Virus record (IMG/VR): IMGVR_UViG_2737471839_000014
Source: a virus
Lineage: Duplodnaviria > Heunggongvirae > Uroviricota > Caudoviricetes
Length of the DNA: 24,071 bases
Direction: 5' to 3' (one strand)
Both the position numbers and the translations under genes were made by a program. Of this stretch, positions 17,850 to 18,686 are shown piece after piece; the first letter of the stretch is position 1; every line of letters starts with the position of its first letter. The notes beneath the pieces were generated by a model that saw only the letters and a program-made list of their open reading frames with translations, made no database searches and was not told the DNA's origin.

Positions 17850-18378
17850 TGTTCTATCCCCCAGCAGGTTAATGCACTCTCCTGGTCACGACGAATAACC
17901 TGACCGTAACAATTATTTGAACGAATGCGGCAATCACGTCCACCGTCCTTTATCCACCAGCGAATCGCCTCGCATGCGCCTTTACGATCACCGGCATTAA
18001 GCCGCTTATAAAACGTCGACGGAAAACACTTACCAGGGCCAATGTTATAGGGACAGAATGACGCGATACCGGCTTTCTGTGGCTCGGTCAGTGGAACTTT
18101 TATATTGCGCTCCACCCATGCCAGCGCCTTATCACGCTCAATGGCGTTGACCTGGTCGCATTTTTCCTTCGACAGTTTCATATTGGGAAAAACGTTTTTT
18201 CCATCCACCACTGTGGCACCCCGACAGATGGTCCATATGCCAGAACCATCGCGGTATGCCATTGTGTGGTTACCTTCTTTTTCGTCCAGAAACTGGTCAA
18301 GTATCTGAGGAGCAGATGCGCCAGCACCAATCAGCGCCAGAACGGCAGCCGACAGGCCGTATTGATTTTTGTGTTCAT
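17846..18378 (-). CDS. SAR endolysin (T4-lysozyme-like, R21/RrrQ-like) with apparent 5' frameshift
   Basis: body ...[17 protein letters not shown] (SAR segment) ...[22 protein letters not shown]... resembles phage 21 R / E. coli prophage lysozymes; the only ATG (18378, ATGA-overlapped with upstream ORF stop) is one base out of frame with the body and separated from it by an A5 run; track ORF 17846..18460 instead begins at an unsupported TTG. Confidence 0.8.
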
Positions 18379-18686
18379 AGATATTTATGATGAGGACGCT
18401 CGTGCTTATTGGCAGGATTTTCAATCTTAAAGGAGTACTGATGCTGCAGATAAGACTCAACTTTTTCTGACAATTTTTCTGCTACTTCCAGGAAGACTTG
18501 CCGGACGCTCATTCTGGCTGCTGCCTCATAAAACTCCAGCGCAGCTCCTTCAACACGGTCCATGGCGACATCCAGGCCAAAAATTTCACCGTCAAAGCGT
18601 TCTTTGTCCCGTAACGCTAAAGTTACCGTAACTTTATTCTCAAAATTGCGGATCCCTTTCACAATCAGTTCATATTTTTGAGTCAT
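18375..18686 (-). CDS. YdfR-like protein (unknown function) between holin and endolysin
   Basis: 103 aa soluble ORF, ATG at 18686 with GGGAGAG SD; same size and position as ydfR of E. coli K-12 Qin (between essQ and rrrQ); identity by synteny and length only. Confidence 0.6.
   Translation of the reverse strand: MTQKYELIVKGIRNFENKVTVTLALRDKERFDGEIFGLDVAMDRVEGAALEFYEAAARMSVRQVFLEVAEKLSEKVESYLQHQYSFKIENPANKHERPHHKYL

Follow-up and report, generated by a model that had tools for sequence, protein, structure and literature searches.

Does an endolysin gene whose native start codon lies in another frame record a true mutation or an error of sequencing? The question is raised by the rrrQ locus of a 24,071-nucleotide stretch of prophage DNA (the window), which is the whole of contig JUDH01000047.1 from draft assembly GCA_000798355.1 (2014). 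The break in the rrrQ frame is a deterministic feature of the sequence, and what has to be decided is mutation versus error, not chance.

The lysis cassette and its neighbours

The lysis cassette of the window belongs to an E. coli lambdoid prophage of the Qin/mEp460 type, and its features are collected in Table 1. The holin gene has an MKSM dual start (Met1...Met4), aligns over 71 of 71 residues with no stops and is 97% identical to the annotated essQ. As a small PF04971 ORF with a dual start, directly upstream in the endolysin's cassette, it encodes the predicted partner of rrrQ, of the S21-type/pinholin family. The ydfR gene carries an SNP at 18602 (K29E) that serves as a marker of the lineage, and on the other side of the endolysin the GTG start of rzpQ overlaps the endolysin TGA. 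The rzoQ-like o-spanin is also intact, and the spanin pair persists despite the loss of the endolysin.

The terminator-like hairpin that precedes the holin gene is found in Q-containing relatives too, and its read-through would require a Q-modified polymerase. Between the Q region and the holin gene there are two ORFs with TolA C-terminal domains (PF06519; 19158-19553 and 19704-20132, minus strand, 131 and 142 aa), which are preceded by a DUF3927 ORF (20502-20630) and whose mutual identity is only about 28%; they look like moron-type cargo of the late operon.

Table 1. Coordinates of the lysis cassette, the rrrQ lesion and the second deletion in the window.
Feature	Position	Strand	Remarks
Lysis cassette		-	S21-like holin, ydfR, SAR endolysin rrrQ, spanins rzpQ/rzoQ, in that order
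rzpQ i-spanin, DUF2514, 165 aa	17352..17849	-	PF10721, 100% identity; intact
rzoQ-like o-spanin	within 17402-17698	-	embedded in rzpQ, +1 frame; lipobox LTSC, proline-rich tail
Endolysin body, RrrQ residues 7-177 + stop	17846..18361	-	SAR segment + GH24 domain; PF00959
15-codon out-of-frame remnant	18331..18378	-	present product of the native ATG; TGA 18333-18331
Lesion site	18362..18363	-	one G missing between two A's; codon 6 AGA (Arg)
A5 run	18366..18370	-	length as in intact orthologs; weak A_AAA -1 slip motif
ydfR, DUF1327, 103 aa	18375..18686	-	PF07041, 4.6e-50; intact
Native rrrQ start ATG	18376..18378	-	ATGA overlap with ydfR stop; without Shine-Dalgarno sequence
Annotated non-canonical starts	18380..18388	-	ATC 18382-18380 (178 aa); ATA 18388-18386 (180 aa)
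Holin gene, essD/essQ type, 71 aa	18691..18906	-	S21-like class II/pinholin family; PF04971; intact
Terminator-like hairpin + T-run	19015..19032	-	directly upstream of the holin gene
Truncated ydfU', 137 aa	20832..21245	-	117 YdfU residues, then out-of-context tail past the junction
Junction of the 2,543-bp deletion	20893..20895	-	relative to carrier CP057154.1 (locus L121)

The endolysin is out of frame with its native start

The original prediction held that the endolysin is out of frame with the ATG at 18378, that the ydfR stop overlaps this ATG, and that the lysozyme body has no supported start upstream. All three statements stood. On the minus strand the ydfR TGA (18377-18375) and the native endolysin ATG (18378-18376) form an ATGA overlap, and the junction at the rrrQ start, CTATGAAC, is found also in K-12 and in 95 IMG/VR stretches (those matching the intact 38-mer). 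The lysozyme body lies one base upstream in frame relative to the native ATG frame; it matches the intact allele at 100% identity, yet has no usable in-frame start. No ORF runs without interruption from a usable start through the catalytic residues, as it would in a functional gene, because the frame of the native ATG ends after 15 codons.

The support for each start site was judged by its Shine-Dalgarno pairing energy. The neighbouring genes gave -13.8 (holin), -8.6 (ydfR) and -8.4 kcal/mol (rzpQ), and the candidates for rrrQ gave +0.2 (TTG 18460), +0.7 (ATG 18378) and -3.3 kcal/mol (ATA 18388), while the Shine-Dalgarno sequence of the ATC at 18382 was weak or absent. The first in-frame ATG of the lysozyme frame is Met40, which has a moderate Shine-Dalgarno sequence (-6.1 kcal/mol) and lies beyond the catalytic Glu35. 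A 204-aa ORF starting at the TTG was considered and rejected as a real gene, given its pairing energy, its location inside ydfR and the lack of any such product on record.

The lysozyme frame encodes a predicted SAR endolysin of the phage 21 R type

The lysozyme frame matches the phage lysozyme catalytic domain PF00959 (6.2e-24) and contains the E35-X8-D44-X5-T50 triad. In alignments, its residues 9-174 cover residues 5-163 of both 3HDE (E = 1.2e-16) and 4ZPU, the RrrD structure (E = 2.2e-16). The hallmarks of SAR endolysins are two to three N-terminal basic residues, a weakly hydrophobic Gly/Ala-rich transmembrane segment and the E-X8-D-X5-T motif, and the definitive test is membrane-tethered export with release by pinholin or depolarisation (S21 68 or DNP) (PMC9239132). 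When the missing G described below is restored, K4 and R6 of the protein precede a segment of 18 residues with 61% G/A/S/T and a mean Kyte-Doolittle value of 1.4; in the window itself the basic N-terminus belongs to the ATG frame and the SAR segment to the lysozyme frame. The repaired product is thus predicted to be a SAR endolysin of the GH24 'true lysozyme' kind, of the phage 21 R/P1 Lyz type.

The closest model is RrrQ (YdfQ) of the K-12 Qin prophage, which shares with the window the order essD/essQ, ydfR, rrrQ, rzpQ and the ATGA overlap with ydfR. K-12 RrrQ and the widespread allele WP_001092966.1 keep the G of codon 6, whereas the window allele is without it and its native ATG is out of frame. 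R21 of phage 21 (3HDE/3HDF) and RrrD of DLP12 (4ZPU) belong to the same GH24 family (PF00959), and their SAR and catalytic parts are aligned with those of the window, but they are distant homologs of the window rrrQ with alignment at the profile level. The endolysin of phage 21 is likewise paired with an S21-type holin; there, however, R directly follows S, whereas in the window ydfR stands between holin and endolysin, and the window copy is a pseudogene. Among plaque-forming phages, mEp460/mEp460_ev081, HannyBb and Tritos share the architecture, with nucleotide identities of 96-98.7% across the stretch from holin through ydfR and lysozyme to spanin; unlike the window, mEp460_ev081 has an intact AGA codon. 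None of the 276 phage records reached 99% identity to the window cassette and none equals the window allele.

The lost base is the G of codon 6

Alignment to intact orthologs, proposed at the outset as a check, was carried out with three loci (two E. coli chromosomes and phage mEp460_ev081) and places the loss at the G of the AGA codon: the ancestral ATC AGA TAC reads ATC A-A TAC in the window. All three loci have the intact reading ATG AAC ACA AAA ATC AGA TAC GGC (MNTKIRYGL). Restoring the G yields exactly WP_001092966.1 (177/177 aa), in agreement with the 177 aa given for RrrQ in the original prediction, and the restored product differs from K-12 RrrQ by a single residue (176/177, N62T).

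It had been proposed instead that the missing base was one A of the A5 run. We reject this location, since the run is five A's long in all orthologs, K-12 and the 95 IMG/VR stretches included, and the lost base is a G flanked by A's, 3 nt downstream of the run and outside any homopolymer. An extra A would indeed restore the 177-codon frame, as had been claimed, but would give MNTKNQYGL, with NQ where the ancestral MNTKIRYGL has IR.

The G-less allele is shared by a clonal prophage lineage

Besides the window, the G-less allele was confirmed in the DNA of 11 further assemblies: GCA_000819145.1, GCA_013817105.1 (a complete chromosome, CP057154.1), 031233225.1, 050807645.1, 030939345.1, 021110215.1, 022611915.1, 017747585.1, 005396085.1, 020374725.1 and 031224635.1. 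These carriers were traced through the shared 180-aa product and then through the YdfR K29E variant together with the 178-aa call, which gave ten more assemblies. With the window, this makes at least 12 assemblies with the allele, which differ in submitter or project and in year. GCA_000819145.1, which shares the 180-aa product of the window, matches it over 13 kb with one SNP between them. Product calls of the G-less allele are on record for 25 contigs, 23 with the 178-aa and 2 with the 180-aa form, and the intact 177-aa protein is on record for at least 1,000 contigs.

With 0-2 mismatches per 10 kb relative to the window, the carriers are near-identical, and we assign them to one clonal prophage lineage. 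The possibility that the allele had spread over diverged phage backgrounds, and hence into viable phages, was considered and discarded, as only near-identical carriers were found and there was no phage, IMG/VR or metagenome match. A metagenome contig with the YdfR-E29 marker retains the G, which is consistent with its being the ancestral state. By these comparisons, the mutation arose once and recently.

Alternative readings

Could the G be really present and have been dropped from the consensus? The window comes from a draft assembly of 2014, and the G-less allele was found in none of 5,426 complete RefSeq E. coli genomes (7,207 copies of the gene start), K-12 and 3,246 other complete genomes having the G. 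There was likewise no G-less allele in the 276 phage records, the JGI metagenome contigs or the GTDB species representatives, and no exact match of the 37-nt G-less sequence in IMG/VR; a literature search on the two 2014 assemblies returned nothing. However, the lack of an exact match in the 5,426 genomes is due to the collection, which is without CP057154.1, and the homopolymer error suggested in the original prediction does not hold, as the lost base lies outside any homopolymer, next to an A5 run equal to that of all orthologs, and the same allele occurs in the other 11 assemblies, of varied accession series and dates and with one finished chromosome among them. Neither is the assembly prone to indels in general: over the 21 kb shared with two relatives of about 99% identity there are three window-specific length differences (the missing G, a run of A8 shortened to A7 at 16482 and a deletion of about 2.5 kb), of which the A7 is common to 34 genomes, no other unexplained indel was seen, and 30 of 30 other genes are full length. 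An identical allele across different assemblies effectively excludes a sequencing error, which we hold to be extremely improbable, and by this concordance among assemblies the G deletion is a genuine, inherited mutation in one clonal prophage lineage.

A genuine deletion might still leave a working gene. In public records the gene is named lysozyme, with an ATC start in 23 contigs (UPI00098A470A) and an ATA start in KHI92293.1 (this contig) and KIG83177.1, and if these NCBI calls were right, initiation at 18382 or 18388 would produce a functional endolysin of 178 or 180 aa (M-YEHKNQ... or MNIYEHKNQ...). Each codon is no more than 10 nt from the ydfR stop, at which ribosomes that have just terminated could start again, and near-cognate codons initiate measurably in E. 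coli; their rate, however, is 0.02-3% of that of AUG even with a good ribosome-binding site (bioRxiv 10.1101/063800), and here there is essentially no Shine-Dalgarno sequence (-3.3 kcal/mol). Moreover, re-initiating ribosomes also meet a competing, perfect AUG 4-10 nt away, E, H and K would replace K4 and R6 with loss of the net positive charge that is normal before the SAR segment (PMC9239132), and these codons lie outside the lysozyme frame in every intact relative and were therefore never selected as starts. We consider a functional non-AUG start very improbable, and the ATC and ATA starts are best read as annotation artefacts. A recoded product, MNTKNQYGL..., would follow from a -1 slip of tRNA-Lys on A_AAA (18370-18367) or from an extra A added by RNA polymerase, giving an attenuated endolysin. 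The A5 run does lie upstream of the lesion and within the remnant ORF, and a -1 slip there re-pairs perfectly and enters the lysozyme frame. Yet the motif in the zero frame (ACA AAA ATC) is only the weak tetramer A_AA.A and not a heptamer, and five A's are too few for appreciable slippage by the polymerase, which begins at about 8-9. The tetramer is one of six that respond to a stimulator, but it is the weakest responder, and without a stimulator such tetramers shift at about background (0.147% versus 0.112%) (PMC4066793). We found neither the stimulatory element nor the conservation of a programmed -1 frameshift: the sole downstream hairpin has a z of -1.1 against shuffled sequence and is equal in intact alleles that need no shift, and the allele occurs in one clonal lineage only, with no evolutionary conservation of the recoding site. 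We regard recoding as very improbable. Some low-level translation of the lysozyme frame, through the near-cognate ATC or ATA or a -1 slip on A_AAA, may nevertheless take place, and lysis by a SAR endolysin does not always need a holin. We accordingly give very little credence, though some, to a 'dimmed' allele, in which reinitiation at the ydfR stop or a -1 slip would supply a trickle of SAR endolysin with a less positively charged N-terminus. If that were true, the lineage would keep a strongly delayed or stress-dependent lysis, a natural tuning of lysis through 'savior' recoding that would explain the untouched rest of the cassette.

Consequences of the frameshift

We believe that the true, inherited 1-bp deletion very probably disables rrrQ, which would make it a young pseudogene in a progressively decaying Qin/mEp460-type prophage. 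Since the native ATG is without a Shine-Dalgarno sequence, intact phages must express the gene by termination-reinitiation at the ATGA overlap, where ribosomes that end ydfR would re-initiate at the overlapping rrrQ ATG. In the G-less allele the same ribosomes would make a 15-residue peptide and stop, and the SAR segment and the E35-D44-T50 domain would not be translated at a meaningful level. An induced prophage would then probably depolarise and kill its host cell through the holin while the wall is not degraded, and there would be neither lysis nor release of virions.

Apart from the lost G, the window allele has no change in its other 171 codons or anywhere in the 1.55-kb cassette, which, together with the restriction of the allele to one clonal lineage, indicates that the mutation is young. 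The otherwise perfect conservation of the cassette in the carriers would be explained by recent common ancestry, an explanation that does not of itself prove absence of function.

A second lesion and the decay of the prophage

Compared with CP057154.1, the window has a deletion that removes YdfU residues 118-349, RusA and a 273-aa Q antiterminator (PF03589), and with them a PR'-like promoter, a tR'-like terminator and the genes for tRNA-Met/Ile(CAT) and tRNA-Arg(TCT). Microhomology at the junction amounts to 1 bp. The junction was found in none of the 5,426 complete genomes and in none of the other frameshift carriers, and no contig other than this one has the truncated YdfU product on record. 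So short a microhomology makes a mis-join of the assembly over a repeat unlikely, but as the deletion is seen in one assembly only, confidence in it is lower than in the G deletion. Without Q and the late-promoter region, the late operon is probably silent in this strain.

In GCA_000819145.1 the G deletion is present and the 2.5-kb deletion is absent, and in the sister assemblies Q, rusA and ydfU are called full length, as are terminase and portal in assemblies long enough to include them. Because sister assemblies with the frameshift keep Q, the frameshift preceded the Q deletion and was not a result of prior decay, and this order points to the Q deletion as a second step of prophage decay in this strain. 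The view of the original prediction that the lysis enzyme is inactivated in a defective prophage applies in full to this contig, which has the frameshift and is also without Q; in the sister prophages the frameshift stands beside a full-length Q, rusA and ydfU.

In a 90%-identity protein cluster, the truncated YdfU is grouped with proteins that, among those listed, are all 125-aa antiterminators of the Q family (PF06530). The idea that it is itself a small antiterminator of this family was rejected (about 21% identity to the 125-aa Q proteins, no Pfam match); its clustering with Q-family proteins is spurious and could mislead. The tRNA-Arg(TCT), which in an intact relative occupies positions 595-671 of locus L019 and in intact relatives lies upstream of the lysis genes, reads the AGA codon that lost its G. 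AGA is a rare arginine codon in E. coli; the loss of both the G of this codon and the tRNA in the window is probably a coincidence.

Other changes in the region were also recorded. In CP057154.1 an IS21-family element (IstB plus transposase; 10828-13135 of locus L121) stands at the place of the window's DUF1441/terminase genes, and represents an independent further decay step in the same lineage. The A7 run at 16482-16488 (plus strand; T7 on the minus strand) is one base shorter than the A8 of the two closest relatives, and this allele is common to 34 complete genomes. It lies in the N-terminal extension that PGAP gives to ynfN (76 aa), which it would truncate to 14 codons. The K-12-type YnfN start (MREYPNGE...), as we take it, lies downstream of the run; the change is probably harmless and casts doubt on the long ynfN annotation.

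Cargo of the host-beneficial or addiction type is fully conserved (15932-16988 and 22060-22272, minus strand): cspI, ymcF and gnsB are 100% identical to those of relatives, and hokD is kept as well. Conserved cargo versus lesions in lysis and regulatory genes is as expected of a prophage under domestication. Defective lambdoid prophages that are without late-gene control or lysis functions, such as the cryptic K-12 prophages Qin, DLP12 and Rac, similarly have point lesions and deletions in lysis and regulatory genes and keep the cargo cspI, gnsB and hokD, but the window prophage is at a much earlier stage of decay, with head, tail and terminase genes of full length.

Implications

The locus is a young pseudogene, from a gene family that is well known, produced by ordinary prophage decay. 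The case also shows that concordance of independent assemblies can replace read-level checks when a frameshift has to be told from a sequencing error. As the lesion is hidden in the annotation of 25 contigs, automated surveys that look at prophage intactness or at the diversity of endolysins would score the gene as functional. The G-less allele and YdfR K29E together provide a clean marker of one E. coli prophage lineage, in which an early stage in the loss of lysis can be seen: one point lesion with the rest intact, followed in this strain by a second hit that removed Q.
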